Source: an uncultured Frankiaceae bacterium
GTDB lineage: Bacteria > Actinomycetota > Actinomycetes > BP-191
Assembly: GCA_964651395.1 (NCBI GenBank)
Contig: CAZYXZ010000001.1
Span: forward strand, 15,274-79,273
Direction: 5' to 3'
DNA: 64,000 nucleotides
The notes beneath the pieces were generated by a model. That model searched no databases, was not told the DNA's origin, and worked only from the letters and a program-made list of their open reading frames with translations. Positions 4,912 to 50,874 of this stretch are shown here, piece after piece. Every line of letters begins with the position of its first letter. Position 1 is the stretch's first letter. Position numbers and translations under genes: made by a program.

Positions 4912-4942
4912 CCGGCAGCCTATGTGCACTAGCGTCTGCCGC

Positions 4943-5314
4943 ATGGGACCGGACGCGTTCGCGGCGCTGCTGGGTATCAGCGTGAGCCGCGGCGGCCAGC
5001 ACAGCGCGACCGCCACGGTCGAGGTGACCGCCGACCATCTCAACCCCAACGGCCAGGGACATGGCGGGCTGACGTTCGCGGTCGCGAGCGCCGCGCTGGC
5101 GGCAGCGGCCAACGACGAGCAGTACAGCGGCGTGGCCACCTCGGTGCACGTCGACTACGTGCGGCCGGCGAGCCTCGGCGACACGCTCGTCGCCGAGACC
5201 GAGCTCGAGGAGCGGCTCGACCGCGAGGACCTGTTCGCCGTGCGGGTGCTGCGGCAGTCCGACGGCGCGCTGGTCGCGCGCGGTCACGCGCGGATGACGC
5301 GGCGGCCGCGCTAG
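4943..5314 (+). CDS. PaaI-family (hotdog-fold) thioesterase
   Basis: C-terminal 124 aa of the long ORF: 'MGPDAFAALLGISVSRGGQHSATATVEVTADHLNPNGQGHGGLTFAVASAALAAAAN...'. Typical PaaI thioesterase. Confidence 0.65.
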   Translation: MGPDAFAALLGISVSRGGQHSATATVEVTADHLNPNGQGHGGLTFAVASAALAAAANDEQYSGVATSVHVDYVRPASLGDTLVAETELEERLDREDLFAVRVLRQSDGALVARGHARMTRRPR

Positions 5315-6724
5315 CTACGGCGCCCGCGAGGCGTGGAGGTTGTTGGCGGCGTAGAGCAGCTCGGCCTCGCTGAGGTCACCGCTGATCGTCACGACGAGTC
5401 CGTTCTCGCGGACCAGCCAGAGGTGCGGCGTCGCCCGCGGGTGGATCACGACGTGGGCGGTGAGCCCGGCGTAGTCGCCGCCGGTGAGGACGACGTCGTA
5501 GCCGGCCGGCTCGAAGCCCTCACCGGGAGCCAGCGGGTCCTGCCAGCCGTGGTCACAGCCGGGGCAGTCCGGCGGGCTGTGCCGGTCGGGGTTCTGCGCG
5601 CGCGTGGTGATCAGCGCCTGGGCCAGGCCACGCCCGTACGTCTGCTGCGTCGCCCGGTCGGTGAGCGGGTTGAGCCCTTCCGCGCCAGTGGTCTGGCTTC
5701 GGGTCGCCCACGCCCCTGCCGACGGCTCGAGGTCGGCCGGCAGGATCGTCTGCGGGACGCGGTAGCCGACCGGGGTGTCGATCGCACTGATAGGCCCACC
5801 CCGGGTCCAGCCGGCGTCCTCGCCGCCGCTGAGCGTGTAGCTCAGCTTGGCCACACTCGACGACATCGAGGTGACGTCGAAGTCGATGACCTTCTTCGCG
5901 CCGACGAACTCCTCGACACCGACGACCACACCGGTCTCCTGGTCGAGCCAGACCGTGGCGCTCTGGCCACCGCTGCCGCCGATGCTGTTGCGGATGACGG
6001 GAACTGTCGTCTTCCAGGCCGGTCGGTCGCCGCTGCCGTAGCTGGTCGTCGTCACGGTCGCGCGCCCACTGGCGACGAGCGCTCGCACGTACGAGCCCAA
6101 CGTGGTCTGCGCGAAGTCGTCGACGATGCCGCGACCGGACGGATCGGGTGCTGCCAGCGCCAGGCCACGCTCGACGCGGTCGGGCGTCCCGTCCTGGCGG
6201 TAGCGGACTACTCCGTCGCGGAGCTGGACGGAGAACGTCACGCCGGCGCTGTTCGTGTAGTCGAGGTCCGCGCTGCCGTCGGCGTGCCGGTTGAGGCCGA
6301 ACTCGACCGGGTCCGCGTCCAGCCCGTCGCCGAGGTCGCGCCGCAGGGTGCCCACCGTCCGCGTGGACTCGGTGTGGACGAGCGCGAAGCGCATCTCCTC
6401 GGCCAGCCGCTGGCCCGGCGTGAGGCTCGAGGCAGCCGGTGGGCCGGTGGGCGGTCCGATCACCACCGGCGGCTGCGACGGCGGCTGGGTGGCCGGGGCC
6501 ACCGGCTTCTCGGCGGTCAGCGTGGAGCGGATGGCGTTGCCGCCGACGACCAGGCTCACGACGGCGGCGGCGGCGACCAGCGGCACGAGCCAGGCCGGCG
6601 ACGTACGCCGTCCGGGCACCGCCGGCAGCTGCGCGCGGAGGTCGTCGAAGAAGCCCGCCTCGGGTGGGGGCACGGGCAGGGCGCGCAGCGCGGCACCCAG
6701 CTCGTGGTCGCGGGTCTCGGTCAT
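5315..6724 (-). CDS. Anti-sigma factor, single-pass membrane protein with large extracytoplasmic domain
   Basis: Start 'MTETRDHELGAALRALP...'; TM segment 'AWLVPLVAAAAVVSLVVGG'. Its ATG overlaps the stop of the upstream ECF sigma factor (ATGA). Confidence 0.6.
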   Translation of the reverse strand: MTETRDHELGAALRALPVPPPEAGFFDDLRAQLPAVPGRRTSPAWLVPLVAAAAVVSLVVGGNAIRSTLTAEKPVAPATQPPSQPPVVIGPPTGPPAASSLTPGQRLAEEMRFALVHTESTRTVGTLRRDLGDGLDADPVEFGLNRHADGSADLDYTNSAGVTFSVQLRDGVVRYRQDGTPDRVERGLALAAPDPSGRGIVDDFAQTTLGSYVRALVASGRATVTTTSYGSGDRPAWKTTVPVIRNSIGGSGGQSATVWLDQETGVVVGVEEFVGAKKVIDFDVTSMSSSVAKLSYTLSGGEDAGWTRGGPISAIDTPVGYRVPQTILPADLEPSAGAWATRSQTTGAEGLNPLTDRATQQTYGRGLAQALITTRAQNPDRHSPPDCPGCDHGWQDPLAPGEGFEPAGYDVVLTGGDYAGLTAHVVIHPRATPHLWLVRENGLVVTISGDLSEAELLYAANNLHASRAP

Positions 6725-36607: not shown

Positions 36608-37936
36608 CTAGTGGCGCCGCCGCCGTAGCAGCTTGCGGACTAGCAGCAGGCGCCGAGGGGTGCGCGCTGGGGCGACTGCGGTCAGGTACACGTCAGTGAT
36701 AGCGCCCTCAGCGCGTCCGGGGGCCAGGGTGAGGGCCCTTCGATAGATGGGAGTGGGCTCGTCGTCCCATTCGTAGACGTCGAGCGTGAGTGTGTTGAGT
36801 CGGCGTGCGACGAGCGCGGCGATCGCGTAGGGGCATCGCAGGACGAGATGGACGTGGGTGCTGTGGTGTGCGCCGGCGAGCGCGCGGATGTGCTCGGCGA
36901 TCGCCGCCGCGAGTGGCGCCGCCTGCCGTGCGTCGAGCTCGGCGGGTGCGTAGGCGCTTCGCAGGTGCGACCAGGCGGCGAGTTCCGGCCGCAGGACCTC
37001 GATCAGTGCGGTGTACGCGGGGTCGCTGCTGCTGGGCAGGAGGTCGACGTAGGCCAGGACAGTCCGGCCAGTGTTGGTGCCGTGTCCGTGCCGAACGATG
37101 AGCTCCGGGTTCGGCGCTTCACCGCTGTCTGTCCAACTTGTGCTGGTTCGGTCGACGAGTTCGAGCGTGCCGACGAGGGTGCGCGGTAGGGCTGCGCCGA
37201 GTGCCGCAGCGATGCTGAGGTGCGCGCCGCCGGTGACGACGACGCGGCCGGCGGACGTCGCGCTCAGCGCGTTGTGGACGAGCGACGGCAGGTGGGCGAG
37301 CGCCTGCCGGAGATCCCGCAGCCCCGCGGGGGAGGGGAGGCGGCCGCTGGCGGCGGGTCGTATGCGCATGACGAGGTCGGCGGTGCTGGCAGCGGCGGCG
37401 GGTTGGATCCGGGTCTCGACGTCGAGGCGCAGGTGGCCTGCTGATCGGATACGGGCGGCGAGCGCGTTCAGTCTTCCTCGGGCGAGGTCGGCGGCCAGCT
37501 GGGCGCGTTCGCCGGGCGAGGCGATCGGTCCCTGCTTGAAGCGACTGGCGGTTCCCGACGGCTGGCCGAGCAGCCCGTCCGCGGCCGCGTGGTCGTATCC
37601 GTCGCCGGGCTTCGCCGGGTTCTTGTAGATCGTTGTGGCCATGGCGAGGGTGAACAGAGGCTGGGCTGCCGCCTCGATTAGTCGGGGTGCCTCGACGGTG
37701 CGGACGACCGTCGAGCGGGTGACTTCCGGCGTGAGCAGGATCAAGCCGGCGGAGATGCCTTCGGCGAGGGCATGGTCGAGCTCGTCCTCGGTGTCACCGG
37801 GTGGGAGATCCGTGGCGTCCTGCCAGACCGGGACGCCGGCGGTCCGGAGCGCCCAGGCGAGGTCGACGGCGAGGGCGCGCCCGTCGGATTGCCGGTAGGA
37901 CAGGAACAGCGGTCCCTCGGGGTCGATATCTGGCAC
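36608..37936 (-). CDS. TIR-domain effector with C-terminal sensor domain (TIR-SAVED-like CBASS effector)
   Basis: N-terminus 'PDIDPEGPLFLSYRQSDGRALAVDLAWALRTAGVPVWQD' is a TIR-domain signature. About 300 aa follow, consistent in size with a SAVED domain. GTG start preceded by AAGGAG. Confidence 0.6.
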   Translation of the reverse strand: MPDIDPEGPLFLSYRQSDGRALAVDLAWALRTAGVPVWQDATDLPPGDTEDELDHALAEGISAGLILLTPEVTRSTVVRTVEAPRLIEAAAQPLFTLAMATTIYKNPAKPGDGYDHAAADGLLGQPSGTASRFKQGPIASPGERAQLAADLARGRLNALAARIRSAGHLRLDVETRIQPAAAASTADLVMRIRPAASGRLPSPAGLRDLRQALAHLPSLVHNALSATSAGRVVVTGGAHLSIAAALGAALPRTLVGTLELVDRTSTSWTDSGEAPNPELIVRHGHGTNTGRTVLAYVDLLPSSSDPAYTALIEVLRPELAAWSHLRSAYAPAELDARQAAPLAAAIAEHIRALAGAHHSTHVHLVLRCPYAIAALVARRLNTLTLDVYEWDDEPTPIYRRALTLAPGRAEGAITDVYLTAVAPARTPRRLLLVRKLLRRRRH

Positions 37937-37944
37937 GTGGCTCC

Positions 37945-39267
37945 TTAGGGGCCGTTGGGGTCGCAGGTCGGGCAACCCGACTCGGGTGGGGCGGCGGCGG
38001 TCCAGGTGATTCCGCCGGCGCGCCAGTTCTCATCCGTCGCACCGTCGCCGCCGTAGGGGGCGGCGAGCAGGGTGTTGGGCTGCAGCGCGATGACGGCGAG
38101 GTCACCGGGGAGCACGGCGGCGTTGTCGCCGGCGGCTTGGAGGATGGTCGCGACGCTGACCTTGGCGGCGAGGCCGCCGACGAGATGCAGGTCGCCGCCG
38201 ACCGCGGTCATCGCCAGGTGGGTGAAGCCCTCGCCGTAAGGGCGGTCGAGGGTGGGCTCGGCGTCGAAGACGCCGTCGCGGACTTGCGCGCTGCGTTGGC
38301 AGGTGAGGCAGCCCTGATCCGGCCAGGGGCGCAGCCGGAGCACCTCGCCGATCCGCCCGGTGTCGAGGACGCAGCCCAGCACGGTGGTCAGGCCAGCGCG
38401 GCGCGCGAGGTGGTTGCTCACTCGCCGGGCGGCGACGCCGTCGGCGCAGCAAAGCACGAGGTCGGCATCGTCGAGTAGCGGGCGTACCTGGTCGGCGTCG
38501 GCGACGACGTCGAGGCGGTGCGGGTGAATCTCGGTGTCGGGTCGGTGCTCGCGGAGTTCTTCGGCGAGCGCGTCGACTTTGTGTCGGCCGACGTGCACGG
38601 CGCTGCTGGTGTGGCGGATCAGGTTGTGCCGGGCGAGCCGGTCCGGGTCGATGAGCAACAGCCGGCCGAGGCCGTAAGAGGCCAGCGCGTGCGCGGCGGC
38701 GCTGCCGATGCTGCCGGTGCCCACGAGCGCGATGGTGCGCGCCTGCAGTTCTGCGACCGGCCAGTGGCCGGTGAGCTGAACGATGCCAATGTGTGCAGGC
38801 TCTGTGAGGAGGTCGATGGGCTGGAGCTGTTCGTCGTTGAACATCCAGGCGGCGAACTCGGAGACGAGCTGCCACCCGTCTTCGTCTGGGATGTCCGGGG
38901 CGTAGGTGATCAGGATCGCCGGTTCGGGACCGAGCGCGGGCAGGTCGGGAAGCTGCTGGCGGACCGGGCCGGCTTTCAAGGCGATGTTGCGGAGTCGCGC
39001 GTGCAGGTGTTGGAGGTGCAGGTCGGCGTTGGCGCGTTCCCACCATCCGGTGCCACCGTTGACGTGCTGCAGATTGAGCCGGTGATTTTTTGGCGTGAGG
39101 GGGGTTGGGAATGTCTCCGGGGCGCTGACCTTGCCGATGCTGACACTGCCGACGGCGACCAGAGCATCGACGTCGCTCATCCGGAGCCCGAGTTCGCCGT
39201 GCCGGCCGCCGGTCTTGATTCGCTCCTGGGCGCTGAGGGGAAGCAGCACCGCGATCCGCTCAGGCAT
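37945..39267 (-). CDS. E1-like ubiquitin-activating (ThiF/MoeB-fold) enzyme, Cap2 E1-module-like
   Basis: 'IALVGTGSIGSAAAHALASYGLGRLLLIDPDRLARHNLIRH' (Rossmann GxGxxG plus DxD..NLxRQ-like). 'DLVLCCADGVAARRVSNHLARRAGLTTVLG'. C-terminal CxxC pairs. N-terminal about 160 aa uncharacterised. ATG overlaps the E2 gene stop by 8 nt. Confidence 0.7.
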   Translation of the reverse strand: MPERIAVLLPLSAQERIKTGGRHGELGLRMSDVDALVAVGSVSIGKVSAPETFPTPLTPKNHRLNLQHVNGGTGWWERANADLHLQHLHARLRNIALKAGPVRQQLPDLPALGPEPAILITYAPDIPDEDGWQLVSEFAAWMFNDEQLQPIDLLTEPAHIGIVQLTGHWPVAELQARTIALVGTGSIGSAAAHALASYGLGRLLLIDPDRLARHNLIRHTSSAVHVGRHKVDALAEELREHRPDTEIHPHRLDVVADADQVRPLLDDADLVLCCADGVAARRVSNHLARRAGLTTVLGCVLDTGRIGEVLRLRPWPDQGCLTCQRSAQVRDGVFDAEPTLDRPYGEGFTHLAMTAVGGDLHLVGGLAAKVSVATILQAAGDNAAVLPGDLAVIALQPNTLLAAPYGGDGATDENWRAGGITWTAAAPPESGCPTCDPNGP

Positions 39268-39745
39268 CGTCGGCGGTGGTGTCGTCGGTCGGTACGTTTG
39301 CGTCGTTCTCGTCGGCGAGGAGTTGGGCAGCCTGGGGAACGAGATGGTCGTGCACGGGGTCGCTGACGATCCCAGCCTCGGTCATCTGCTCGATCAGGCC
39401 GAGCTTCATCAGCGCGTACTCGACTCGCCACGCGCAGGCCTTCAGTAGCAGCTCGAGGATGCTGTCTTTCGGTTGCCAGTCGACGGCCGCCTGCAGTAGG
39501 CACAGCCCCCCGTCGGGCAGGACATGCCACTTGTGGTCGGTGCGCACGTGCAGCGACGGTTCCGGGTCGAGGGGATAGATCGTGGGGTAGTGCGCGGGGT
39601 AGGCGGGGCCCGGGATCACGTCGGCGACCAAGCCGCGTGGCACGACTATTGCAAGGCCGTCCGGGGCCGACCGGTCGAACGGCCACACCGGGAGCTCGCC
39701 CCGCCATGAGCCGCCGTTCGCCTCGGTCCAACTCAGCCCGGGCAT
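39260..39745 (-). CDS. E2-like ubiquitin-conjugating (UBC-fold) protein, Cap2 E2-module-like
   Basis: From 'MPGLSWTEANGG...'; 'HKWHVLPDGGLCLLQ' matches the E2 HPN-like loop with catalytic Cys. The ORF's upstream extension (R/P/S-rich) is treated as non-coding. Confidence 0.6.
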   Translation of the reverse strand: MPGLSWTEANGGSWRGELPVWPFDRSAPDGLAIVVPRGLVADVIPGPAYPAHYPTIYPLDPEPSLHVRTDHKWHVLPDGGLCLLQAAVDWQPKDSILELLLKACAWRVEYALMKLGLIEQMTEAGIVSDPVHDHLVPQAAQLLADENDANVPTDDTTADDA

Positions 39746-39827
39746 CCGCGCTGCGAGGGCGGTGAGATCAGCGGCATGTCGGCGTGGTTCTGCCTCCCAC
39801 CAAGGCTGGGGTGCCCGCGACTGCCGA

Positions 39828-40052
39828 TCACCCACCGGGGTTGTCACGGAGGCGATGAGCCCGGTCCGTGGTCGCCGCCGCGGCAGTGCTGCCGGCGGCT
39901 CCGGTGTGCAGCGCGGGTGCTTCGACGGGCACGGGGAACTGCTCGCCGAAGACTTCCCGCCACGCGCGCATCGCGCGTCCCTCATCGCCGGCCCGCGCAG
40001 CCGCACACGCGCGCGCGGCGTTGTCCGCGGCGCTCTGGAGCGCAGCGCGAAG
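39828..40052 (-). pseudogene. Displaced 3' segment of the CD-NTase ORF (76 codons ending -NPGG) separated from its gene by the IS3 insertion
   Basis: Reading on the minus strand from the TSD copy at 40050-40052 in the cdn frame gives an open 75-codon frame '...RAALQSAADNAARACAAARAGDEGRAMRAWREVFGEQFPVPVEAPALHTGAAGSTAAAATTDRAHRLRDNPGG*'. The stop is 80 bp upstream of the E2 start. Confidence 0.45.
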
Positions 40053-40079
40053 TGAACCGCCCCAGGTTCTCTGCCGCTC

Positions 40080-41063
40080 TCATACGGGTTGCGGCTCTCG
40101 GTTGAGAGTCGCGTAGTGGGCGGCCTCGTACTCGCTCGGGGTGAGGTAGTCGAGGCTACTGTGCAGCCGCCGGTTGTTGTACCAGTCGACCCAGCCGGCG
40201 GTGGCCCACTCGACGTCGGTGATGCTGCGGTAGGGCCCGGCGTGGAAGACCGTGGTGCGGATGCACTCGGTCTTGAACAGCCCGATCACGCACTCCATGA
40301 GCGCGTTGTCGTATGCGTCGCCGACGCTGCCGATCGACGGGCGGATGCCTTCGAGGTCGAGGTGCTCGGTGAACGTGATCGACGTGTACTGACTGCCCGC
40401 GTCCGCGTGACCGATCAGCTCGCCGGGCTGGAACGGGTGCCCTTCGCGCTCGCGCTGCCAGGTCGCCATCCGCAGCGGCGTCATCACCAGCTCGACGTCC
40501 TTGGACGTGGCGGCGTGCCAGGCCACGATCCGCTGCGCGAACACGTCGAGGATGAACGCGACGTAGACGAACCCGACCCAGGTCCGGACGTAGGTGAAGT
40601 CCATCACCCAGGTGCGGTTCGGCTCGGTCGCGGTGAAGTCCCGGTCGAGCAGGTCGCCGGCGCGCTTGCCGTCCTTGCCCGGGATGGTCGTGCGCACACC
40701 CTTGGCACGGCGGATGCCGTTGAGCCCCAGCGTTCTCATCGCCCGGTCGACCGAGCCCGGCGTCGCCGCCGGCAGCGAGCGGCGCACCAATCGCAGCATC
40801 TTGCGTCGCCCATAGAGACCTTCCGGGGCCAGCCGGCGGACCCCGGCCAGCTCGCCCACGACATCGACGGTCCAGGCCAGGTCACGCACCCGATCAGTGA
40901 CCTGCGCGTCGGTGACGGTGCGCGCCGCGACCAGCTGGTCGGGCTGCCTCCATGCCCGGTAGGTCCGTGCGGCGATCTGACAGCCCTGCTCGGACAGGAC
41001 CCGGCAGACCGACTCGACCGCAAGACCAGCGGCACGGCAGTCGTCGACGAACGCGACGATCAA
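40080..41063 (-). CDS. IS3-family transposase OrfB (DDE integrase core)
   Basis: 327 aa; 'TWVMDFTYVRTW...', 'HADAGSQYTS', 'GSVGDAYDNALMECVIGLFKTE' are the DDE motifs of IS3-family rve integrases. Confidence 0.85.
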   Translation of the reverse strand: MIVAFVDDCRAAGLAVESVCRVLSEQGCQIAARTYRAWRQPDQLVAARTVTDAQVTDRVRDLAWTVDVVGELAGVRRLAPEGLYGRRKMLRLVRRSLPAATPGSVDRAMRTLGLNGIRRAKGVRTTIPGKDGKRAGDLLDRDFTATEPNRTWVMDFTYVRTWVGFVYVAFILDVFAQRIVAWHAATSKDVELVMTPLRMATWQREREGHPFQPGELIGHADAGSQYTSITFTEHLDLEGIRPSIGSVGDAYDNALMECVIGLFKTECIRTTVFHAGPYRSITDVEWATAGWVDWYNNRRLHSSLDYLTPSEYEAAHYATLNREPQPV

Positions 41064-41371
41064 GAGCTGCGGGGGTCGAGCTCCCCCGCGAAGAAAATCG
41101 ACGCCCGGCGCAGGATCTCGTTGTCCTCCTCGAGCCGACGGACCTTGCCCTTCAGCTCCCGGATCTGCTCGAGCTCCTCGCTCGTCGCACCACGACGCTC
41201 GCCACGGTCGACCTGCGCCTGCAGAAACCAGCGCCGCACCGACTCCTGCCCGACGCCGTTACGTCGAGCGACCGCCTCGGCCGCGGCCGTCGGCGTCGGG
41301 TACTCGTGCACGTGCTCAAGCATCTGCTGGACGCAGCGTTCCTTCACCTTCGGATCGATCTTCTTCGGCAT
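41060..41371 (-). CDS. IS3-family transposase OrfA (HTH)
   Basis: 103 aa 'MPKKIDPKVKERCVQQMLEHV...SVRRWFLQAQ...LEEDNEILRRASIFFAGELD'. Leucine-zipper/HTH OrfA; overlaps orfB. Confidence 0.8.
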   Translation of the reverse strand: MPKKIDPKVKERCVQQMLEHVHEYPTPTAAAEAVARRNGVGQESVRRWFLQAQVDRGERRGATSEELEQIRELKGKVRRLEEDNEILRRASIFFAGELDPRSS

Positions 41372-41421
41372 GAACCCGTCCTCCTGGACTCACAAGGAGG
41401 CGGCATCAAACCTGGGGCGCT

Positions 41422-42192
41422 TCAAAGTGCCGACACGTCCAGGTCGGGCTGGATCGGTCCGCACAGCTTCGCCGGGTCGAGCACGGGGGAGTTGATGCGG
41501 TCGACGGCGCGCTGGAAAAACCCGGCCAAGGCTGTGGGCCGATCTGGGGCTTCGAGCAGGCAGTCAAGGGCGAGCACTTCCACGAGCAGCGACTTCACCT
41601 CGGTGGGCTGAAGCCGCGCCCAATACTTCAGCAACCGCACAAGGGGCACGAATAGCGCCCACTGCTCACTGACTAGCGTGATGAGCACCTGCGGGTTGGT
41701 AGCGATCCACTGCTGCGTCTTGTGTTCGGGTACCCACAGGCCGCCGGCGGCGCGGGGCAGCGCTGGCATCGCGTCGACCGTGAAGTCGTAGTCGCGGAGC
41801 CGGTCGCGGAAGTGGCAGCGGACCGCGTGGTTGCGAGGTTCGGCTCGGAGTAGCTCCTTTCCGACGGTCCCGTTCTCTACGCCGAGCAGGCGCATGGCGT
41901 GGGTCGCGATGAACGCGAGGGCGTCGTCAACGCCGACGGGACTCCCGGGCTGCGCCCAGTCGGGGAAGTGTTTCGGGTCCAGCTTGATCACTGTGTCGAC
42001 GTCATGGATGGGGTCGATGTGGGTGCGCCGCGCCAGTGAGCCGCTGCAGAAGACGTCCAGGACCTCGGTGATCGTGCAGTAGGCGTCGTCGAACAGATCG
42101 CGACGGCGGCGAGCTTCCTTCAGGTCCGCTGGATCGGTGTTGACGACCTGCTGGAACTCGTCGAACGCGTCGTCGAGCGTGCGCTTGCTCAT
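41422..42192 (-). CDS. cGAS/DncV-like nucleotidyltransferase (CD-NTase, SMODS-type), 3'-truncated by the IS3 insertion
   Basis: 'FCSGSLARRTHIDPIHDVDTVIKL' (GS-x11-DxD NTase motif) and downstream 'YDFTVDAMPAL' (third acidic residue). The stop codon is supplied by the IS terminal TTCA. Upstream GGAG SD. Confidence 0.6.
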   Translation of the reverse strand: MSKRTLDDAFDEFQQVVNTDPADLKEARRRRDLFDDAYCTITEVLDVFCSGSLARRTHIDPIHDVDTVIKLDPKHFPDWAQPGSPVGVDDALAFIATHAMRLLGVENGTVGKELLRAEPRNHAVRCHFRDRLRDYDFTVDAMPALPRAAGGLWVPEHKTQQWIATNPQVLITLVSEQWALFVPLVRLLKYWARLQPTEVKSLLVEVLALDCLLEAPDRPTALAGFFQRAVDRINSPVLDPAKLCGPIQPDLDVSAL

Positions 42193-42206
42193 GAGCAGCT
42201 CCAATG

Positions 42207-42228
42207 CTCTCGCCGGACACGGCGAGAG
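42207..42228. promoter_or_regulatory. Perfect 9-bp inverted repeat (CTCTCGCCG-GACA-CGGCGAGAG) 15-36 nt upstream of the cdn start
   Basis: Read directly from the sequence; lies between the SD and the promoter region of the CBASS operon. Confidence 0.3.
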
Positions 42229-42519
42229 TCAGGGTCTCTTCTTGCACTGACAGAAAACCTGGCCATCGCTCTGACGCCCTCCTGCGCGGCGGCGCGCGCA
42301 TTCACCCCGTTGGAACGCGGGTAGCGCAGGAGGGGAAGGAGGCCCGGTCGGCGAGTGTGGTTGCCGCCGGACGGCTGCCTGTAGGGTCCAGCACGCGTGC
42401 CCAACACGTGTGGCCCCGGTCGGTACCCGGTCCCCAATCGGACCTTCCGACCGGGGCTTCGTGTCGGCCCAGTTTAGGCCGAAAAGTGGGCCCTGCCTAG
42501 CACTCTCACCCCTTGAGTG

Positions 42520-42954
42520 CTAACTGCTGTCCGCGGCGCCTGCATCTTGAAGCCGGTCGCGGGCGCGGAGACGACGTTCGGTCTCGATCTGGCCCTGGAA
42601 GTGGAAGATCGCGTTGGCGAACTGGATCAGGAAGTCGGCCTGGCGTACTGGTGTTGCGGCGGATCGGTACAGCTCCCACAGTTCGAAGAGGTTGTCCAGC
42701 CGGCGCGAGCGCTCCTCGTCGGAGTCGAGGTCGGCGACGTCGTCGAGGAACTCCTGGTCGACCGACTCCGGATCGCTTGCTGCTTGTGGCTCGGGGCCGC
42801 CTACAGACGTCGTGCTGTTAGGCGGCTCTGCGACGAGCGGGAGCGCGGACACGTCTGGGGCGATCGGCCGCGCGAGGTTGGCTAACGCCTTGTCCAGCAT
42901 CAGCTGCGGGATCGGGCCGTTCTGACGTTCCCAGTCGTCGAGCCAGAGGCGCAT
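42520..42954 (-). CDS. Hypothetical acidic protein (island-borne)
   Basis: 144-aa ORF with protein-like, acidic composition. Between the Tn7-like module and the CBASS operon. Confidence 0.35.
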   Translation of the reverse strand: MRLWLDDWERQNGPIPQLMLDKALANLARPIAPDVSALPLVAEPPNSTTSVGGPEPQAASDPESVDQEFLDDVADLDSDEERSRRLDNLFELWELYRSAATPVRQADFLIQFANAIFHFQGQIETERRLRARDRLQDAGAADSS

Positions 42955-43336
42955 CGCGCGGAGGCGGCGCCGGCGACCTCATGAGCGCCGCTGGGTCATG
43001 TCCGCGGCCCGGATTGGGGGCCTTGGGCGGCATGCAGTTCCTGGTGGCGACCACGTTGGTCGTTGTGCGCTCCGTGACGATGCCTGGCCGTTCGATCTGG
43101 ATTTCCAGGCGCATCGGTGAGCCGATGCGGATGTCGTCGATGGCGAGGATGGGGATCTCGCGGTGGTCCGCGCGGAGCGCGGCGGGAACGACCCCGGGGC
43201 CGCCGGGGCCGGTGTCGGGTACTCGCAGTGCGGTACGGCGGTCGAGCAGGTAGGTGCTGCTCTCGGTGGTGATCTGCCATCGTCCAGTACGCAGGCGGTG
43301 CACCATGTTGATGGCTGTGGGGGCGTTCCCGGTCAT
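42818..43336 (-). CDS. Hypothetical protein translationally coupled to tniQ (C-terminus uncertain)
   Basis: ATG overlaps the tniQ stop (ATGA). First about 120 aa protein-like; the C-terminal R/P/A-rich tail overlaps the next ORF. Possible frameshift or shorter gene. Confidence 0.35.
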   Translation of the reverse strand: MTGNAPTAINMVHRLRTGRWQITTESSTYLLDRRTALRVPDTGPGGPGVVPAALRADHREIPILAIDDIRIGSPMRLEIQIERPGIVTERTTTNVVATRNCMPPKAPNPGRGHDPAALMRSPAPPPRDAPLARRLGTSERPDPAADAGQGVSQPRAADRPRRVRAPARRRAA

Positions 43337-44328
43337 GGGTGCGGACCGTAGGGGTCCGGTGTGACAGAACGTGCCTGCCGGTCGATGGCTGGTGCTGCAA
43401 AGTGCCCGTGGGCGCTATACAACGCAGCATCGGGACGGCCGGTGGGGGCGGTCGCGATGCCGTGCCATGGATCGGCGAGCCATCTGAAGGCCCGGGGATG
43501 CCGCGCCGCCGGGTGGTGGTGGATGCCCAGGCGGATGGCGAGGCGCTGGCTGAGCAGGGTGGTCTGCTCGCCGTGCGCCGCTCGCCGCGCCGGTTCAGCG
43601 GCGAGCTCGGCAGTCAACTCGACATGCTCTGGGAAGGTGACCGCGTTCGGGATTTGATGCTGCGGCTCGGGTCGAAAGCCGAACGCGCTGAGGTGTGCTT
43701 CCCGGGCTCGCCAGCGCGGGGCCAGCGGCCCGTACGTGCCGTCGGGACCGCGCCAGTCACTGAGGAGCGCGCCGGCGAGCGCGAACGCATGTGCCAGGGA
43801 CTGCGGGTGCTGCTGCCAGGTCAGGTCGAGGGTGCGTTGCGCCGCGACGAGCCAACGCGCGGGTGCTCGTTGTGGTCGCGGGCCCGCCAGCCACAGACCG
43901 TGGCTCGCGCAGTGGATGCGCGGCGGCACGGCCCATCGTGCCGGGTGGGCACCGGCGCGACGGCGTTGGCAGTCCGGACACACACGTGCACCCAGCGGGC
44001 TGTGCTGTGACTTCCAGTGCAGGTGCAGCCGCGATCCGGCGGGCGGTGTCTGGGACAGCGCGGGCAGGGCCCTGCGGAGTTGGGTTGGTGGGTGGCCACT
44101 GAGCACGGCAAGCGCCGCCCGCCGCTCCGGGTCGAGGGTGATGTCGTCCGCAGGGGACCAGTAGGTCCGACGCCGACTGGCCGGCTCGATAACGGCGAGG
44201 AGGGTGCGCAGCGTGAGGTGATGCGCATCGGCGAGGCGGTGGACGTAGGACAGCACGGTCTCGGCGGCTTGTGGCCGCACATGGCGGGGGAGCGGGCGCG
44301 CATCGCGCGCCGGTCGGTGGGGTGGCAT
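43333..44328 (-). CDS. tniQ: TniQ-family transposition target-selection protein
   Basis: 'ETVLSYVHRLADAHHLTLRTLL' plus a zinc-ribbon-like 'CPDCQRRR...HCASHGLW' are typical of TniQ/TnsD N-terminal domains. Confidence 0.7.
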   Translation of the reverse strand: MPPHRPARDARPLPRHVRPQAAETVLSYVHRLADAHHLTLRTLLAVIEPASRRRTYWSPADDITLDPERRAALAVLSGHPPTQLRRALPALSQTPPAGSRLHLHWKSQHSPLGARVCPDCQRRRAGAHPARWAVPPRIHCASHGLWLAGPRPQRAPARWLVAAQRTLDLTWQQHPQSLAHAFALAGALLSDWRGPDGTYGPLAPRWRAREAHLSAFGFRPEPQHQIPNAVTFPEHVELTAELAAEPARRAAHGEQTTLLSQRLAIRLGIHHHPAARHPRAFRWLADPWHGIATAPTGRPDAALYSAHGHFAAPAIDRQARSVTPDPYGPHP

Positions 44329-44332
44329 GCGC

Positions 44333-45343
44333 TCAGCGGTCGGTGCCTGTGCCGACCAGCGGGAGCCGGGAGGCGGCGGTGGTGTCGCTGCTCGCTTCAG
44401 CGAGGCCATCGCAGTCGAGCGCGTCGAGGCTGGCCCGGGTGATCGTTTCGGTGCCGTCGTCGATGGCGGCGATGGCGGCTTCACTGATCAGGTCGCTGAG
44501 GCTGCCGATGCGCCCAGCGCTGCGGGCGTGCAGGTAGGGAGCGAGCCGGCGCAGCGTGCCGGGCTTGTGCTTGTAGAGGCGAAGCGCGTCTTCCAAGTCG
44601 CCGACGAGCGCGTCCCAGAGGGCCCGGTCGTCGGCGGTGCCGTAGCGGAACGGGGTGAGGGTGACCGATCGGAATCGGCCGAGGATCTGTTCGCCGCGGG
44701 TTCCGCGCAGCAGGCCGCTTCGGTCGAGCCGGATGCCGGCGATGACGACGGTGATGCCGGTGCGTTCGGTGAGGTATTTGATCTGGTCGGAGGCTTCGGC
44801 GCCGCGGGCGGTGCCGAAGTTGAGGTTGTGGATCTCGTCGAGCAGCCACAGTTGCGTGTTGAGCGTGCGCATGTTCGCGACGACGATGTTCATCAGGTCG
44901 ACGCGGTTGCCGACCAGGTCGAGGTTGAAGAAGCGGGCGACCTCGCTGATGAACATGCGGGCGTTCGCGCCCGGCGGGACGAGGGTGTAGCCGACCGGGA
45001 TGTCTTCGTCTGCGCGTGGTGTGCGCTTGCGGTAGGCGAGCTCGAAGGAGCGGCCGGCGGCGAGCAACGCTTCGGTCTTGCCGGTGCGTGCCTCGCCGCT
45101 GACGAGCAGTCCGCGGCCGCGCCGGTCCAGTGCGCGCAGCCGTCTGGTCTGGTGCACGACCTGGCGGAGCCCAGGCGTGGCGATGACGACGTTGCGCTGG
45201 TGGTAGGCCCGACGCTCTTCGTCATCGTCCCGGCGGGCCTTCCCGCGCGTCCGTCCCCAGACCCGAGGGTCGAGCAGTGTCGGTGGTGCAGGTGCTTCGA
45301 GCTCGTCGCGCCACTGCTCATAGGTCGTCGGCGCTGGACGCAT
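44333..45343 (-). CDS. TnsC/TniB-family AAA+ ATPase transposition regulator
   Basis: Walker A 'SGEARTGKTEAL', Walker B 'LWLLDEIHNL'. Genes ordered tnsB-tnsC-tniQ. Confidence 0.7.
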   Translation of the reverse strand: MRPAPTTYEQWRDELEAPAPPTLLDPRVWGRTRGKARRDDDEERRAYHQRNVVIATPGLRQVVHQTRRLRALDRRGRGLLVSGEARTGKTEALLAAGRSFELAYRKRTPRADEDIPVGYTLVPPGANARMFISEVARFFNLDLVGNRVDLMNIVVANMRTLNTQLWLLDEIHNLNFGTARGAEASDQIKYLTERTGITVVIAGIRLDRSGLLRGTRGEQILGRFRSVTLTPFRYGTADDRALWDALVGDLEDALRLYKHKPGTLRRLAPYLHARSAGRIGSLSDLISEAAIAAIDDGTETITRASLDALDCDGLAEASSDTTAASRLPLVGTGTDR

Positions 45344-47409
45344 CAGTTCGCTCCGTCGTGCGGGTCGAACACGCCGAGACTCCTGCGTGGTCCTGTTGCT
45401 TCCCGCTGCGGGTCGACGTCGTAGCCGTCGATGCCCGCCTCAGGGAGCGGCACTGAGTGCAACCGGCTGTTCTGCCGGAGCCGTTTGCGAGCGGCTGTGC
45501 GCCGGGCAACATTGCCCGGGCCGCGTGGAGGTCCGGCTTGGACCCGATCGAGGAGGTCGCGGGCGTGCTTGGCGATCTCCTCTTGGCGGACTGGGTCGTC
45601 GCCGTCGCGGGTGAGGCGGACAGCTTGGCTCCAGATGGCGTCGCTGAAGGGGCGGTCGGCCCAGGCGCGCAGTGTCCAGGGCACGGCAATCCACTGCTCG
45701 GATTGGTCGGCGATTCGGTGGTCGCGCAGCCAGATGTGGTTGATGTCGAGTGGGTCGTGGTGGATCTCCCACTGCTGGCGGCGACCGGGCAGGCCGGATG
45801 GTTGGTCGTAGTAGGGCCGCAGCGCGGCGCTGTCGTAGATGCGGTGGTCGAGCTGGATGCCGTAGTGGTTGACGGTGCGCCAGACAGCGGGCATCAGCTC
45901 GATGTAGTCGGTCGGGCCGAGCGGCACGGGCACGTAGCCGTCGCGGGCGAGCAGCGCGGCGGCCATCTCGTTCGGGCTTAGCTGAATCTTGCTGTTCAGG
46001 GGATGCCGGAGTTTGGCGTGCTTGCGGGTCTGCCAGACGCTGACGACGAACTCGTCGAGCAGCTCCTGCAGCTCGGCCAGAGTCCAGAGCCGCTTCGGTC
46101 GCTTGTGACCGCGCTGCTGGGCGTTGCGCCCGACGTAGCCCTTGATGTGCTGCAGGAACAGGCTGTCGAAGGATCCGAAGCTGCGTTCGACGAAGGGCTT
46201 GCTGGTCGGGCGCTGCACCTGGGCCGGCGCGAAGCTGATGCCGACGTGCTCGCAGATGCGCAGGTGGGAGTCGGCGAACGCGATCTTGGCGCGATCCCAG
46301 ATCAGCGTGTCGATCATCACGACTGGTCGGGCTGCCGCGTCTTCGAGTCGTTGGTCGATGCTGATCAGCCGCTCGTAGGGCAGGGCGGAGTGCTGGAGCG
46401 CGAGGAACTCCGGCCAGCCTGGGCGCATCCGCTCCGGGACGAGGCCGCGGGCGAGCAGCAGGCCAGAGTCCACAGCGCTCGGGTCACCTGCATGCAACGT
46501 GGCGGCGAGGACACTGCGGCTCGCCGGATGCTTGAGCGTGAGCAGGTGTGGCCGGCCGACCACGCCGGGGGAGAGGATGGCTTCCACGTTGAGCACGGTC
46601 GCGTCGGCCTCGACTTCTCCGGGCGCGTAGGTGTCGCGTGGCTGGTAGGGCTGATCGGGGCGCAGTGCCGCGCTCTCGCGGGCCTTGGCACTGTCGAAAG
46701 TGTGCCGACCGCGGTCGGCCTCGTGCATCCGCCGATAGACGGTGGCCTTGCTGGGCATCGGGAAGTCCGGGCCGTGGCGTTCGCGGAGCAGCCGCTCGAC
46801 GCGCACCCGAAGCCGGCCCCGCTCGCCGGTGGACTCACCGATCTCACGGTCCATGCACTCGGTGATGGCAGCCATGAGCTCGGCGTCGCCGCGCTGACGT
46901 TGCGGTTGGGGCGCGAGTCGCCGGTCGACTAGCGCCCAGAGGCCTTCTTGCTGGTAGTCGCGGCAGTAGCGGCGCAGCGTGCCCAAGGCGATCGGGCTGG
47001 TGCTGTTGGCCGTCTGCGCGACCTTGCGTTGCTGCCGGTCGAACAGTGACGTGCTCGCCGGGTCGAACTGCGGGTCGGCCGGCAGGCCAGTGCGGGCTTC
47101 CCCGTAGAGGACCTCGCGGACATGCCGCTCGAGCGCACGAGCCGCGGTGACGATGTCTGTGCGCAACCCGTCCAAGCGTGCGTCGGCCGGCACGCGGGGT
47201 CGCTGCGAGTCGAGCAGCTCGAACGTCGGATCGGCAAGCAGGTCGCCGGCGAGAGTGGTGAGGACCTCACCGTCGTTGCCGAGCAGCGTCACCGTCGTGG
47301 TTCCGCCCGGTCGCAGCTCCCGCAGGGTGCTGAGAGCGCGCACGGAGTATGTGCGCTCAGCAAGGCGCAGCACCGCACCGATGCGCAGCATCGGCCGCCC
47401 GCCCGTCAT
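45343..47409 (-). CDS. TnsB/TniA-family (Mu-type DDE) transposase
   Basis: About 690 aa; 'VVMIDTLIWDRAKIAF...', 'HIKGYVGRN', a C-terminal region typical of the rve/Mu-transposase family. ATG overlaps the tnsA-like stop (ATGA). Confidence 0.75.
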   Translation of the reverse strand: MTGGRPMLRIGAVLRLAERTYSVRALSTLRELRPGGTTTVTLLGNDGEVLTTLAGDLLADPTFELLDSQRPRVPADARLDGLRTDIVTAARALERHVREVLYGEARTGLPADPQFDPASTSLFDRQQRKVAQTANSTSPIALGTLRRYCRDYQQEGLWALVDRRLAPQPQRQRGDAELMAAITECMDREIGESTGERGRLRVRVERLLRERHGPDFPMPSKATVYRRMHEADRGRHTFDSAKARESAALRPDQPYQPRDTYAPGEVEADATVLNVEAILSPGVVGRPHLLTLKHPASRSVLAATLHAGDPSAVDSGLLLARGLVPERMRPGWPEFLALQHSALPYERLISIDQRLEDAAARPVVMIDTLIWDRAKIAFADSHLRICEHVGISFAPAQVQRPTSKPFVERSFGSFDSLFLQHIKGYVGRNAQQRGHKRPKRLWTLAELQELLDEFVVSVWQTRKHAKLRHPLNSKIQLSPNEMAAALLARDGYVPVPLGPTDYIELMPAVWRTVNHYGIQLDHRIYDSAALRPYYDQPSGLPGRRQQWEIHHDPLDINHIWLRDHRIADQSEQWIAVPWTLRAWADRPFSDAIWSQAVRLTRDGDDPVRQEEIAKHARDLLDRVQAGPPRGPGNVARRTAARKRLRQNSRLHSVPLPEAGIDGYDVDPQREATGPRRSLGVFDPHDGAN

Positions 47410-48182
47410 GTCTCGCCTCCGGCGCGCACAAGGCTGTCCGATCGCATGGGCCGGTCCAGGTCGAGGCGCAGCCGACCGGCCCACAGCTCGTGGTAGAGCG
47501 CGGGGAGAACTCTCAGGGGGTCGCCGAAGAGCTCAGCGCCGGCGCGCAGGCCGAGCGGTTCGGCGAAGACGACGGCAAGCTGCGTGGCCAGCTCAGCGTT
47601 GCGGCAACGCGGGTGTCGGTACGCGGCGATGAATCGCAGGTTGCTGCGGTAGGGCTCAACCAATGGCCCCAGCACGCGGTAGCCCCATCCGAGCTGCGCG
47701 CACATTCGTGCAGTGGCCGTGAACGTCGTGGCGGCTGCGGTGTCGATCTGCGCCGGGTGTCGGCAGTCGACGAGGAGCCTGCTGGCGTCGGCGCGTATCA
47801 GCAGCGCGTCGGGCACATGCATCCGGTCCGACCAGACCAGCTGCATCGGCTGGCTGACGAGGGCGACAGTGTGCGGGTCAAAGTCGGCCTGCTGGAACCG
47901 GTCCCGTTCGAGTCCGGACTCGTATGTCCAGTACCGCCGTTCGGTCGCCGACCAGTACTGGCCCGACCGGGCCAAGCCCCGCCCGAGCTTGAGCACATCA
48001 CGCACCGGTTGCATCCCGGGCAGCGGCAGCGCGCCGAGGTCATCCGCGGCTAACCGGATCGGCTCGCCGTCCGCGGCCACGTAGCGCACCTGCGGCAGGT
48101 CGCGGCCCGACAGGTGAGCTGGACGTGCGGGCCGGCGTGGCGCAGCAGCGCGGAGGGTCCCCCCCGGCGCAAGCGTCCGCAT
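47406..48182 (-). CDS. TnsA-like endonuclease (Tn7-type transposition protein)
   Basis: From 'MRTLAPGG...'; 'YWTYESGLERDRFQQADFDPHTVALVSQPMQLVW...HVPDALLIRADASRLLVDCRHP' follows the TnsA catalytic-core pattern (ES..E...D..QP...PD). The last acidic/basic pair is divergent. Confidence 0.5.
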   Translation of the reverse strand: MRTLAPGGTLRAAAPRRPARPAHLSGRDLPQVRYVAADGEPIRLAADDLGALPLPGMQPVRDVLKLGRGLARSGQYWSATERRYWTYESGLERDRFQQADFDPHTVALVSQPMQLVWSDRMHVPDALLIRADASRLLVDCRHPAQIDTAAATTFTATARMCAQLGWGYRVLGPLVEPYRSNLRFIAAYRHPRCRNAELATQLAVVFAEPLGLRAGAELFGDPLRVLPALYHELWAGRLRLDLDRPMRSDSLVRAGGET

Positions 48183-48383
48183 CGACACCTCCGGGGGGAA
48201 GCAGCTGCACCTCCGGGAACTACGGAGAGTGACGAACTGCACGGGGCGTGCTGACCTCGCAACGGTACGGCTGGGAGGGGGATTCGGACAAATCGACCAG
48301 GAGGCGGACCTAGAGTGGGATGGACCTCGAGCATCGGCAGGTGACGTGTGAGCCGGACCACGGACCAGCCCGATCCGCTTGTG

Positions 48384-48731
48384 GCGCGCTATGTCGCGGA
48401 GATCGTCACCGCCATCGAGGCCGCGCGCGGCGGACGATCGCTTCGGCAGTTCGCCCAAATGTGTGGGGTGAGCGCCTCGACCTTGTCCGCGGTGATCCGT
48501 GGCCGGCGCTTCCCAGATCTGCAGACCGTCGTGCTGGTCGAGGCCGCTACCGGGATCGAGATCTGGCCGTTTGACCGCATTCGGGCCGCCGAGTTCGCGG
48601 CCTCGCGGATGCGGGTCGCAGAGTCACGCGTACGGCCCCGTGCGCAGTTAGGCCAACAGATCAGTTCCGCAGGCCGCACTCATAGGCCAGCCAGCCGGAC
48701 TCCCGGGGCCAGTCGCTGCGATCGAGGGTGA
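48384..48731 (+). CDS. XRE-family helix-turn-helix protein
   Basis: 'SLRQFAQMCGVSASTLSAVIRGRRFPDLQTVVLVEAATGIEIWPF' is an HTH_XRE-like motif. Divergent from the tnsA-like gene. C-terminal extent uncertain. Confidence 0.45.
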   Translation, partial: ARYVAEIVTAIEAARGGRSLRQFAQMCGVSASTLSAVIRGRRFPDLQTVVLVEAATGIEIWPFDRIRAAEFAASRMRVAESRVRPRAQLGQQISSAGRTHRPASRTPGASRCDRG

Positions 48732-49494
48732 CCCTCAGCCGGCGAGCGTGCGCGGTGAGCCCACGGCGGATCGCCCTTTCGATGCCGACGACATCCGGCC
48801 GGTCGTCCAGGTAGTCGCCCTGGCCCCAAACCACCCTGATCTGAGTGAGCAGTACGACCTCGGGATAGACCCACGGCTCGACGTTCCCGGCCCGCCATGC
48901 CGGCCAGTCGGCTTGATCGCAGCGTGCTGCCCAGATCCGCGCGAGGTACGGAAGCTCCAGGCTTCGCCAGGAATAGGCGACACCGATCGCCCCCCGTAGC
49001 TGCTCGAGGAAGCCGCGGTGGCCGCGGCTGCGGGCGAACATCCGGTCGAGACGGGTCTGCGCTCCAGTCAGTTCCGTGCTGCGCACCGGGGTCTTCTCGC
49101 CGACCACCTGCTCGTGCTCGGTGCAGTAGAGGAAGGGCGCGTGTGCCCACCGGGCGAGTCGCGCGCCGTCGTCACGGAGGCAGGCGGTACACCGGTACGG
49201 AACGGTGATCAGGCCGCTCTCTCGGCGCATCGTCATGCGCGGTCGCGATTCGTCGCGCAGCCATAGCGGGGGTTGGGTGACCCAGTCGCGGTAGGTGAGG
49301 GCCGGCATCGCGGAACGCAACAAGCCGACCGGTAGGCCGGACAGCGCCGATAGCTTCTCCTCGAGAGGCCCATGCGCGATCACATCCCGTGCCCGCTCCG
49401 TCGACGCGGGCAGCGCCAGCGGCAAGGCGCGCACCGGGAGGTGGTGCGCGTCGGCGAGGCGGCCCAGCCAGCTCAGCACCGTCTCGCCCGGCAC
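48661..49494 (-). CDS. TniQ-family protein (second copy)
   Basis: 'ETVLSWLGRLADAHHLPVRAL' plus zinc ribbon 'YRCTACLRDDGARLARWAHAPFLYCTEHEQ'. GTG start. Confidence 0.6.
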   Translation of the reverse strand: MPGETVLSWLGRLADAHHLPVRALPLALPASTERARDVIAHGPLEEKLSALSGLPVGLLRSAMPALTYRDWVTQPPLWLRDESRPRMTMRRESGLITVPYRCTACLRDDGARLARWAHAPFLYCTEHEQVVGEKTPVRSTELTGAQTRLDRMFARSRGHRGFLEQLRGAIGVAYSWRSLELPYLARIWAARCDQADWPAWRAGNVEPWVYPEVVLLTQIRVVWGQGDYLDDRPDVVGIERAIRRGLTAHARRLRVTLDRSDWPRESGWLAYECGLRN

Positions 49495-49538: not shown

Positions 49539-50483
49539 TCAGGACAGCCCCGCCTCGGCGGCGATCTGGTGGATCTCCGGGTAGCCGCGATAGCTCATCA
49601 GCGGCGACGGCGCGAGCCAGGCGAGCAGCTCACGGGTACATAGCGGCGCGTCCCGAGCCAAGTTGAGCCGGCGGCACATGATGTGCTGCAGGTCGGCGGC
49701 GAAGTGCAGCCAGTGATGACGCGCCTCGTGGTAGCCATCCGCGGTCGCGAGGTCATGGCGCAGAAGCGCCGTGGCAACCATGACGGCTTCGGGGAGCTGA
49801 AACGGCCGCACCGTCCAGCCGGTCGTCGGCCAGTCCTGGCTTGCCCGCCGTTGCTGCCAGGCCTGCTCGACCAGCGCCGGCCACCCCGGCGCGTCGCGAC
49901 CCGGGTGCCGCCAGCCACTGAACATCCGCAGGGTGCGCTTCCACGCGGACTCAGCAGCCGCAGCCGGGAAGACCCGCCACAGCCCAGACAGCTCAGCCTG
50001 TGCGCGGCGAACAGCCCCCGAACGCAAGGTGATGCCGGCGGCGTCGGTGAGCAGTAGCTGGTGTGCCGCGCAGTACAACTGCGGGCCGAGCCAACGTCGC
50101 GATGGCGCGGCGCCGCCGCGTCTGCGCGAGCAGCGCAGGCAGTATCCCGGCCAGGCACTGTCGTCGAGACCGCTGTCGTAGGACGCCGCTTCTCTGCCGT
50201 CAGGCAGCAGCGCGCGGTCGGCCGCACCTGGCAACGCGGCGGCCAGACGTCGCGTGGTTGTGCCGGCCATACAGGCGAGGTGGGCGCGGCCCGGGCGAGT
50301 GAGCCACAGATCGGTCGGCACCCAGTGGCCGGTGGCGCTCGGCGGGCCAGTGCCGAGCATGCGGGCCACGTGGTCGTCCAGGAGGTGGTTGGCTTGAGCG
50401 AGGCGACGAACGTAGGAGCCGGCGCCCTCACCGCCCACCGGCCGCACTGTTCGGGGGAGTGGTCGCAGCGGTTGGTCCGGCAT
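49539..50483 (-). CDS. TniQ-family protein (third copy)
   Basis: From 'MPDQPLRP...'; 'GEGAGSYVRRLAQANHLLDDHVARMLG' plus 'WPGYCLRCSRRRGG...LYCAAHQL'. Confidence 0.6.
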   Translation of the reverse strand: MPDQPLRPLPRTVRPVGGEGAGSYVRRLAQANHLLDDHVARMLGTGPPSATGHWVPTDLWLTRPGRAHLACMAGTTTRRLAAALPGAADRALLPDGREAASYDSGLDDSAWPGYCLRCSRRRGGAAPSRRWLGPQLYCAAHQLLLTDAAGITLRSGAVRRAQAELSGLWRVFPAAAAESAWKRTLRMFSGWRHPGRDAPGWPALVEQAWQQRRASQDWPTTGWTVRPFQLPEAVMVATALLRHDLATADGYHEARHHWLHFAADLQHIMCRRLNLARDAPLCTRELLAWLAPSPLMSYRGYPEIHQIAAEAGLS

Positions 50484-50613
50484 GGGCAACCCTGAGCGCT
50501 GACGGCGTTGTGTTGGCCCTTTCCCCAGGCTCCAGGATGCGAACCCCGAGCACGCCGGCGGACCGTTCAGGTGGCGCCAGCCGGACGGGAGACACGACCG
50601 GTGTTGCAGGCTC

Positions 50614-50874
50614 CTATCGCCGACCAGGCGGAATCGGTGACGCGTCCACCGCGGGTGTGATTCCGGGTGAGGGAAGCAGCCCGTGGTCGCGCCATTGCCG
50701 GACGATCTCGTCACGCTTCTGCTCGGCGTACCAGGTCAGGCCTGTGGTGATCACACCCGGAGGGAGCAGCAGAACCACGATCAGCAGGAGCCGCCCGCGC
50801 AGCCGCTGCCAGCGGCGCGACCAGTCGAAGTCGATGACCTCCAGGACCAGTTCAATGAACACGCTCCGCAGCAT
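50614..50874 (-). CDS. Small hypothetical membrane protein
   Basis: 86-aa ORF with one hydrophobic segment 'LLLIVVLLLPPGVITTGL'. Weak support. Confidence 0.25.
   Translation of the reverse strand: MLRSVFIELVLEVIDFDWSRRWQRLRGRLLLIVVLLLPPGVITTGLTWYAEQKRDEIVRQWRDHGLLPSPGITPAVDASPIPPGRR

Follow-up and report, generated by a model that had tools for sequence, protein, structure and literature searches.

Type II antiphage systems based on signaling through cyclic oligonucleotides (CBASS), such as those of E. coli, V. cholerae and E. cloacae, are defined by a nucleotidyltransferase resembling cGAS and DncV (CD-NTase) and a cyclic-nucleotide-sensing effector in one operon, by E1 and E2 activities (fused in Cap2), and by the JAB isopeptidase Cap3. 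In these systems, the conserved end of the disordered cyclase tail binds the E1 adenylation site of Cap2 (bioRxiv 10.1101/2022.03.31.486616). In canonical type II cyclases only the last residue is conserved and the penultimate residues vary, and deletion of the terminal glycine abolishes conjugation and phenocopies the loss of Cap2 (PMC10097602). We analyzed a 64,000-nt stretch of contig CAZYXZ010000001.1 (hereafter, the window) from an uncultured Frankiaceae bacterium, which carries a putative CBASS operon whose CD-NTase gene (cdn) is interrupted by an insertion sequence (IS) of the IS3 family. Disruption of accessory and defense genes by IS elements is well known. Here, in an otherwise intact E2/E1-type CBASS, we consider it very probable that the truncated cyclase is misfolded or inactive and that the system is non-functional. 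Coordinates are positions in the window; cdn, the IS, and the E2, E1 and effector genes all lie on the - strand, where the order is cdn 5' ORF (open reading frame), IS orfA, IS orfB, E2, E1 (440 amino acids) and effector (455 amino acids). The G+C content of the region is 66-72%.

As it stands, the cdn ORF comprises 260 codons from a TTG at 42204, or encodes 256 amino acids from an ATG at 42192, and ends at 41422. This 5' part of the gene (41425-42192, - strand) encodes residues 1-256, including the GS and DxD catalytic motifs, and its product is identical to a 256 amino acid database protein (P0001). Across the junction the - strand reads ...GAC GTG TCG GCA CTT TGA, where CTT is one copy of a target-site duplication (AAG, 41425-41427) that codes for Leu256, with which the truncated cyclase ends, and TGA (41424-41422) corresponds to the first three bases of the IS, which halt the cyclase after residue 256. 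The truncated product ends in DVSAL, with zero foreign residues added. The second AAG copy (40050-40052), which also reads CTT (Leu) on the - strand, borders the opposite end of the element, where the orphaned 3' part of cdn (39828-40052, - strand) encodes 73 further residues and a stop codon, as supported by a hidden Markov model (HMM), by a homologue alignment (A1) and by a structure model. Both the AAG repeats and the stop codon supplied by the IS had been recognized in the first-pass annotation of this region. The same annotation counted 75 restored sense codons, a figure that the 225 nt of the orphaned part yield only when the duplicated Leu codon and the stop are included. In-silico deletion of 40053-41427 gives a continuous - strand ORF from the ATG at 42192 to a stop at 39830-39828, encoding a protein of 329 amino acids that ends in RLRDNPGG, in line with the earlier estimate of a typical CD-NTase of about 330 amino acids. 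The frame of this reconstruction is kept only by offsets that are multiples of 3.

We used homology to prove the reconstruction because the openness of a frame alone proves nothing in such DNA. Indeed, the open 75-codon frame was rejected as weak proof, since at the 70% G+C of this DNA a second frame runs for more than 1.5 kb without a stop. A set of 119 cyclase homologues (P0002-P0120, in which the truncated protein P0001 is not counted) ranges from 313 to 369 amino acids, with a median of 328, and the sole 256 amino acid entry is P0001. Against an HMM built solely from these 119 homologues, the 74 amino acid translation of the orphaned region scored 49.9 bits by itself, over positions 254-323 of 323, compared with 5.4 bits for the best of 200 shuffled sequences and zero matches for the other two frames of the region. 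This result disagrees with a coincidence of G+C bias, which had been named beforehand as the finding that would undo the reconstruction. The restored part aligns with its relatives along its whole length, including the conserved terminal glycine. The restored protein matches the PADLOC cyclase profile PDLC00818 from residue 6 to residue 328 of 329 (model positions 3-321 of 322, E 4.6e-107), and the Pfam SMODS domain scores 32.5 bits (cutoff 26.5). Together with the CdnD profile and fold matches described below, this agrees with the identification of the interrupted gene as a CBASS CD-NTase. Among the invariant or near-invariant columns of the family, L260, A263, A267, A270, W286, G291, F294, P295, D325 and G329 fall in the removed part.

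The IS itself (40053-41424, - strand; 1,372 bp) was delimited by comparison with related elements, because its inverted repeat alone is unconvincing in G+C-rich DNA: many chance inverted pairs of like quality occur at 70% G+C here. The block opens with TGAACCGCCCCAGGTTCTCTGCCGC (40053-40077, the orfB-distal end, whose terminus is conserved in the relatives) and closes with the near-complement GCGGCATCAAACCTGGGGCGCTTCA (41400-41424, the orfA-proximal end, whose last bases, TCA at 41422-41424, are the TGA of the - strand). These imperfect inverted repeats, TGAA...TTCA, have arms of 25 nt that are 84% complementary, as the first-pass annotation had described them. To define the ends independently of the repeat, we scanned 185,579 species-representative genomes with OrfB, which returned 362 relatives, and compared the termini and flanks of the 43 related copies having both flanks. 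All 43 begin and end at the same terminal bases, TGAA[G/C]CGCCCCAGGTT ... AACCTGGGGCG[C/G]TTCA, and their lengths are 1,353-1,384 bp; a wrong assignment of the element ends, the other result that had been set out as fatal to the reconstruction, is not what we find. Identical 3-bp flanks are present in 14 of these 43 copies, where about 1 would be expected by chance. Taken singly, the inverted repeat or the open frame is weak; together, the termini shared by 43 relatives, the 14/43 target-site duplications and the HMM score of the orphaned fragment are decisive.

IS elements are a frequent cause of misassembly, and it could be argued that a repeat was wrongly joined into cdn, which would be uninterrupted in the true genome. 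Run SRR13766249 has been assembled independently in Logan, and one of the contigs (SRR13766249_31363, here L001), which corresponds to window positions 40068-43510, spans the junction of cdn with the IS and almost all of the element. This contig stops 15 bp before the far IS end, so that the junction between the IS and the 3' fragment is without a second source of support; low coverage or the edge of a repeat could explain why the contig breaks there. A perfect 3-bp duplication at the exact IS termini together with in-frame rejoining of the gene is not something that a misjoin would produce, and the exact OrfB sequence is on record for one contig only, giving no sign of a multi-copy repeat to misplace. 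We therefore regard an assembly artefact as extremely unlikely.

The coding content of the element is that of an IS3-family member. The orfA gene (41060-41371, - strand) encodes a 103 amino acid protein with an HTH_Tnp_1 domain (Pfam) that matches positions 3-83 of the NCBIfam IS3 model NF033516, and orfB (40080-41063, - strand) encodes a 327 amino acid protein with a DDE integrase core (rve/rve_2/rve_3; Pfam rve, E 6.2e-18) that matches positions 92-369 of the same model with 228.4 bits (cutoff 160), in agreement with the family first proposed. Both ORFs thus match NCBIfam transpos_IS3. The orfB gene lies in the -1 frame relative to orfA, with a 4-nt overlap. Reading of the sequence at this overlap (41069-41098, - strand) shows a T-rich run (GATTTTCTTC) and, just 3' of it, a G+C-rich hairpin with a perfect 7-bp stem (GCGGGGG-AGCTCGA-CCCCCGC, 41069-41089), which is a probable candidate for a programmed -1 frameshift signal. 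The element shares with the IS3 family its length, two ORFs in 0/-1 frames, an orfA with a helix-turn-helix (HTH) domain, an rve-type orfB, 5'-TG...CA-3' termini, a 3-bp target duplication (the family criterion is 3-4 bp) and a match to NF033516 above cutoff, and differs in that its putative frameshift site is not the classical A AAA AAG.

The OrfB relatives have at most 83% amino acid identity, and all are from Actinomycetota among the 80 listed. Because OrfB is no more than 83% identical to any copy found, the usual naming criteria would make the element a new IS of the IS3 family. An exact match to its 30-nt end is present in two metagenome contigs only, both with elements that are 77-87% identical, and no second copy was detected in the window, where the element matches only itself. 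Relatives of the IS (L014, L031, L039, L064, L078 and others) often make up contigs of about 1.36 kb on their own, at very high coverage (e.g. cov 392, cov 436), and the Ornithinimicrobium panacihumi genome has at least 12 contig-end copies of a related IS. Such stand-alone, high-coverage contigs are typical of genomes in which an IS is active and present in many copies, and the IS family is highly active in some Actinomycetota.

To assess what the truncation removes, we modeled the restored cyclase with AlphaFold2 from an input alignment of 41 sequences (mean predicted local distance difference test, pLDDT, 90.9; predicted template modeling score 0.86). The best Protein Data Bank matches of the model in Foldseek are CD-NTases, with P. 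aeruginosa CdnD first (6p82, E 2e-19), and the cyclase family profile matches 6p8u over residues 2-293 (E 1.8e-41). The SGSLAR (residues 50-55) and DVD (residues 64-66) motifs are invariant in alignment A1 and are both retained in the 256 amino acid product; DVD aligns with D62/D64 of P. aeruginosa CdnD, the residues mutated in 6p8j. The protein thus has the core features of a CD-NTase, i.e. a pol-beta-type nucleotidyltransferase with a GS motif and catalytic acidic residues. At the C-terminus, the model shows helices 253-275 and 279-290 and no regular structure beyond them, with disorder from about residue 296 and pLDDT below 50 from residue 306. According to the model, the IS takes away about 40 residues of the folded helical lobe and a tail of about 35 residues. 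Removing core helices destabilizes a protein fold, and we infer that a CD-NTase without its last two core helices would be unstable or inactive. Judged from its sequence, cdn is a disrupted member of the CD-NTase family, a pseudogene, because the complete two-lobed fold is absent from the protein as encoded and is obtained only after in-silico excision of the IS.

The first-pass annotation proposed that the insertion inactivates or de-regulates the system, and these two outcomes do not fare equally well. The truncation point at residue 256 comes after the GS and DxD motifs and the third Asp, the genes for E2, E1 and the effector are intact, and in an E. coli CBASS loss of the terminal glycine leads to only a partial loss of defense for some phages (PMC10097602), so that one could picture a 256 amino acid cyclase that is still active, escapes E1/E2 control and re-tunes the system. 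The cut, however, reaches 40 residues into the folded domain and takes away two helices that are predicted with confidence and that occur in all 119 homologues and in the solved CdnD structures; the shortest natural family member has 313 amino acids; and toxicity would be expected of an unregulated cyclase whose TIR-SAVED effector is intact. We consider a still-active cyclase very unlikely. In the model the loss extends beyond the tail to part of the fold, which makes inactivation a much likelier outcome than de-regulation. The 256 amino acid cyclase is most likely misfolded or inactive, and not primable, because both the two helices of the helical lobe and the tail are missing.

The annotation had pointed to a Gly-Gly C-terminus, and the restored protein does end in NPGG; the usual end of the family, in contrast, is Q-G. 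A terminal glycine is present in 110 of the 119 homologues, and the tail consensus of these 110 proteins is P-R-[P/R]-V-[R/K]-D-x-P-Q-G, with Arg at position -9 in 109/110, Asp at -5 in 100/110, Pro at -3 in 94/110 and Gln at -2 in 107/110. The window tail, AHRLRDNPGG, agrees with this motif except at positions -9 (His) and -2 (Gly), and a PGG end is shared by one homologue (P0013). The restored protein therefore has the disordered C-terminus ending in a conserved Gly or Ala that characterizes type II CBASS cyclases. The restored tail is plausibly a conjugation substrate, by analogy with those systems, since E2 and ThiF-type E1 genes follow immediately. To our knowledge, there is no experimental study of split E2/E1 CBASS without JAB, or of their long tail motif.

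The E2-like gene (39260-39847, - strand) encodes a protein with a conserved Cys in GGLCLLQ that matches PADLOC PDLC00860 (E 1.5e-65), with model positions 4-180 aligned from ORF residue 62. This gene had been placed 80 bp downstream of the restored cdn stop. In an alignment with the E2 proteins of two related operons (L082 and L083), the N-terminal W-x-E-x-EPRR motif is conserved and precedes the ATG chosen in that annotation, for which reason the most likely start of E2 is a GTG at 39847 or 39835, which would give an overlap of 20 or 8 nt with the restored cdn stop. Such an overlap suggests translational coupling of cdn and E2, which the IS insertion would break.

Downstream of E2, an E1-like adenylating enzyme of 440 amino acids with a ThiF domain is encoded at 37945-39267 (- strand; Pfam ThiF, E 5.2e-25; PADLOC PDLC00829, E 3.4e-145, full length), followed by a TIR-SAVED effector of 455 amino acids at 36608-37975 (- strand; Pfam TIR_2 and SAVED; PADLOC PDLC00728, E 1.4e-117, full length). 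Three related operons, L082 (1808-5916), L083 (6001-10829) and L084 (5076-9904), have the same order of cdn, E2, ThiF E1 and SAVED effector, with cdn and E2 3-8 bp apart, E2 proteins of 184-191 amino acids and E1 proteins of about 425 amino acids. We searched the ORFs near the window operon with Pfam, NCBIfam and PADLOC profiles, and neither these ORFs nor the operon itself gave a JAB/Cap3 hit; none was found in L082, L083 or L084 either. PADLOC holds a JAB-TIR-SAVED fusion model (PDLC00727/PDLC02013), and the window effector matches only the TIR-SAVED part of PDLC00727 (positions 171-589). A promoter scan of the operon gave no sigma-70-like promoter, a result that is uninformative as the scan does not cover actinobacterial promoters, and terminator-like sites occur at chance level. 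As for the surroundings of the related operons, the gene divergent from cdn in L082 (573-1601) encodes an HTH and Peptidase_M78 protein, which resembles a described two-protein CBASS transcriptional regulator module (bioRxiv 10.1101/2022.04.27.489752), and the L083 operon lies beside a DrmE_C/DNA-methylase (DISARM-like) cluster (1-5743), i.e. in a defense island.

Taking these observations together, we propose that the IS3-family element transposed into codon 256/257 of cdn, within a four-gene - strand operon (cdn - E2 - E1 - TIR-SAVED), making its usual 3-bp target duplication. As the sequence shows, the terminal TGA of the IS ends the cyclase at residue 256 and leaves the other 73 codons stranded 1.37 kb downstream. 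The truncated cyclase would keep GS/DxD and lose the final two helices of its helical lobe along with the disordered tail, including the terminal glycine that in type II CBASS is the handle adenylated and conjugated by E1/E2, so that it could not be primed. Without a cyclic-nucleotide signal the TIR-SAVED effector would not be activated, and the CBASS as a whole would not function.

Several points weigh against this interpretation. The loss of function is argued from a predicted structure and from general knowledge of how folds are destabilized, and the catalytic residues are all kept in the 256 amino acid product. The tail differs from its relatives at two near-invariant positions, His for Arg (-9) and Gly for Gln (-2), and its conjugation is drawn by analogy, the system being a split E2/E1 CBASS without JAB. 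Finally, no IS-free allele for comparison was found in a search of 5.8 billion clustered proteins, in which the nearest other cyclase is 54% identical and the only 100% match to the restored query is the truncated protein itself, and the exact 32-nt empty-site junction was not found in JGI metagenomes.

The insertion looks recent, because the duplication is perfect and both IS ORFs are intact, and because neither a stop nor a frameshift interrupts the orphaned fragment and E2, E1 and the effector retain their full length. Deviations from conserved columns are not significantly more frequent in the orphaned part (2/12) than in the part that is retained (4/74; Fisher p = 0.19), which fits a recent insertion and gives no evidence either way on decay of the fragment.

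We identified a Tn7-like module immediately upstream of the CBASS operon and in the same orientation, with genes for a TnsA-like protein (47406-48458; NCBIfam TnsA_like_Actin, E 4.1e-60), a Mu-type TniA (Mu-transpos_C, 45343-47484), TniB (44333-45343) and TniQ (43333-44484), and two further TniQ genes (48661-49494 and 49539-50714), all on the - strand. Two small ORFs of 172 and 144 amino acids lie between TniQ and cdn (42520-43336, - strand), and neither has a Pfam, NCBIfam or PADLOC match; the 144 amino acid ORF is likewise called as a gene in Logan contig L001. Tn7-like elements are known to carry defense systems as cargo, CBASS among them (PMC8649781). As in those systems, a TnsA-like/TniA/TniB/TniQ module adjoins the operon, and the adjacency suggests that the CBASS is probably cargo of a Tn7-like element; what differs is that the ends of the transposon were not located, as no convincing inverted repeats were found in the window.

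This neighborhood is consistent with horizontal acquisition, and it is conceivable that the insertion was selected because a newly acquired CBASS was costly or autoimmune in its host. The other components are intact and the orphaned fragment is without signs of decay, so that the cyclase would have been hit first and recently, and instances of CBASS toxicity have been documented (e.g. PMC11153139). Nevertheless, IS elements strike non-essential genes at random, a second independent disruption was not found, and one insertion cannot separate selection from drift. We regard adaptive loss as unlikely. More doubtful still is a further elaboration, in which the insertion was selected to switch off, at the level of the host, a self-toxic CBASS that had recently transposed and that belongs to an actinobacterial subtype (split E2/E1, no JAB, long tail R-x-V-[RK]-D-x-P-Q-G), whose tail would be a critical regulatory handle recognized differently from that of canonical Cap2 systems.

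Under the reading that we prefer, loss of cyclase function by a recent insertion, the 256 amino acid 'SMODS protein' should be annotated together with the 225 nt that follow the IS, which carry no annotation, as the two halves of one pseudogene, and the CBASS should be scored as disrupted, neither as active nor as a short variant. The locus opens no new question and reveals no new mechanism; it adds one more well-resolved and apparently recent case in which a costly abortive-infection system is inactivated by a mobile element, and the reconstructed sequence allows a repaired-versus-disrupted comparison for the actinobacterial split-E2/E1 CBASS subtype.

Compared with known systems, the locus shares with the type II CBASS of E. 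coli, V. cholerae and E. cloacae an E1 (ThiF) and an E2 adjoining the cyclase and a SAVED-domain effector, and differs from them in that E2 and E1 are separate genes rather than a Cap2 fusion, no JAB/Cap3 was found near the operon or in the three related ones, and the cyclase gene is interrupted. By gene content it encodes a CD-NTase and a cyclic-nucleotide-sensing effector in one operon along with predicted E1 and E2 activities, and is a system that resembles type II CBASS yet has split E2/E1 genes and lacks a recognizable Cap3. Unlike the tails of canonical type II cyclases, that of the actinobacterial clade is conserved over about 9 residues (R-x-V-[RK]-D-x-P-Q-G). The closest solved structure, by both profile and fold, is P. 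aeruginosa CdnD (6p82/6p8u), a clade-D CD-NTase of a type III (HORMA/TRIP13) CBASS; the identity is about 25%, the partner of CdnD is HORMA rather than E1/E2, and CdnD is a 300 amino acid protein without the long C-terminal tail of the restored cyclase. CBASS and its C-terminal conjugation handle are established, as is the IS3 family, and the IS and the cyclase described here are new sequence variants of these known families.

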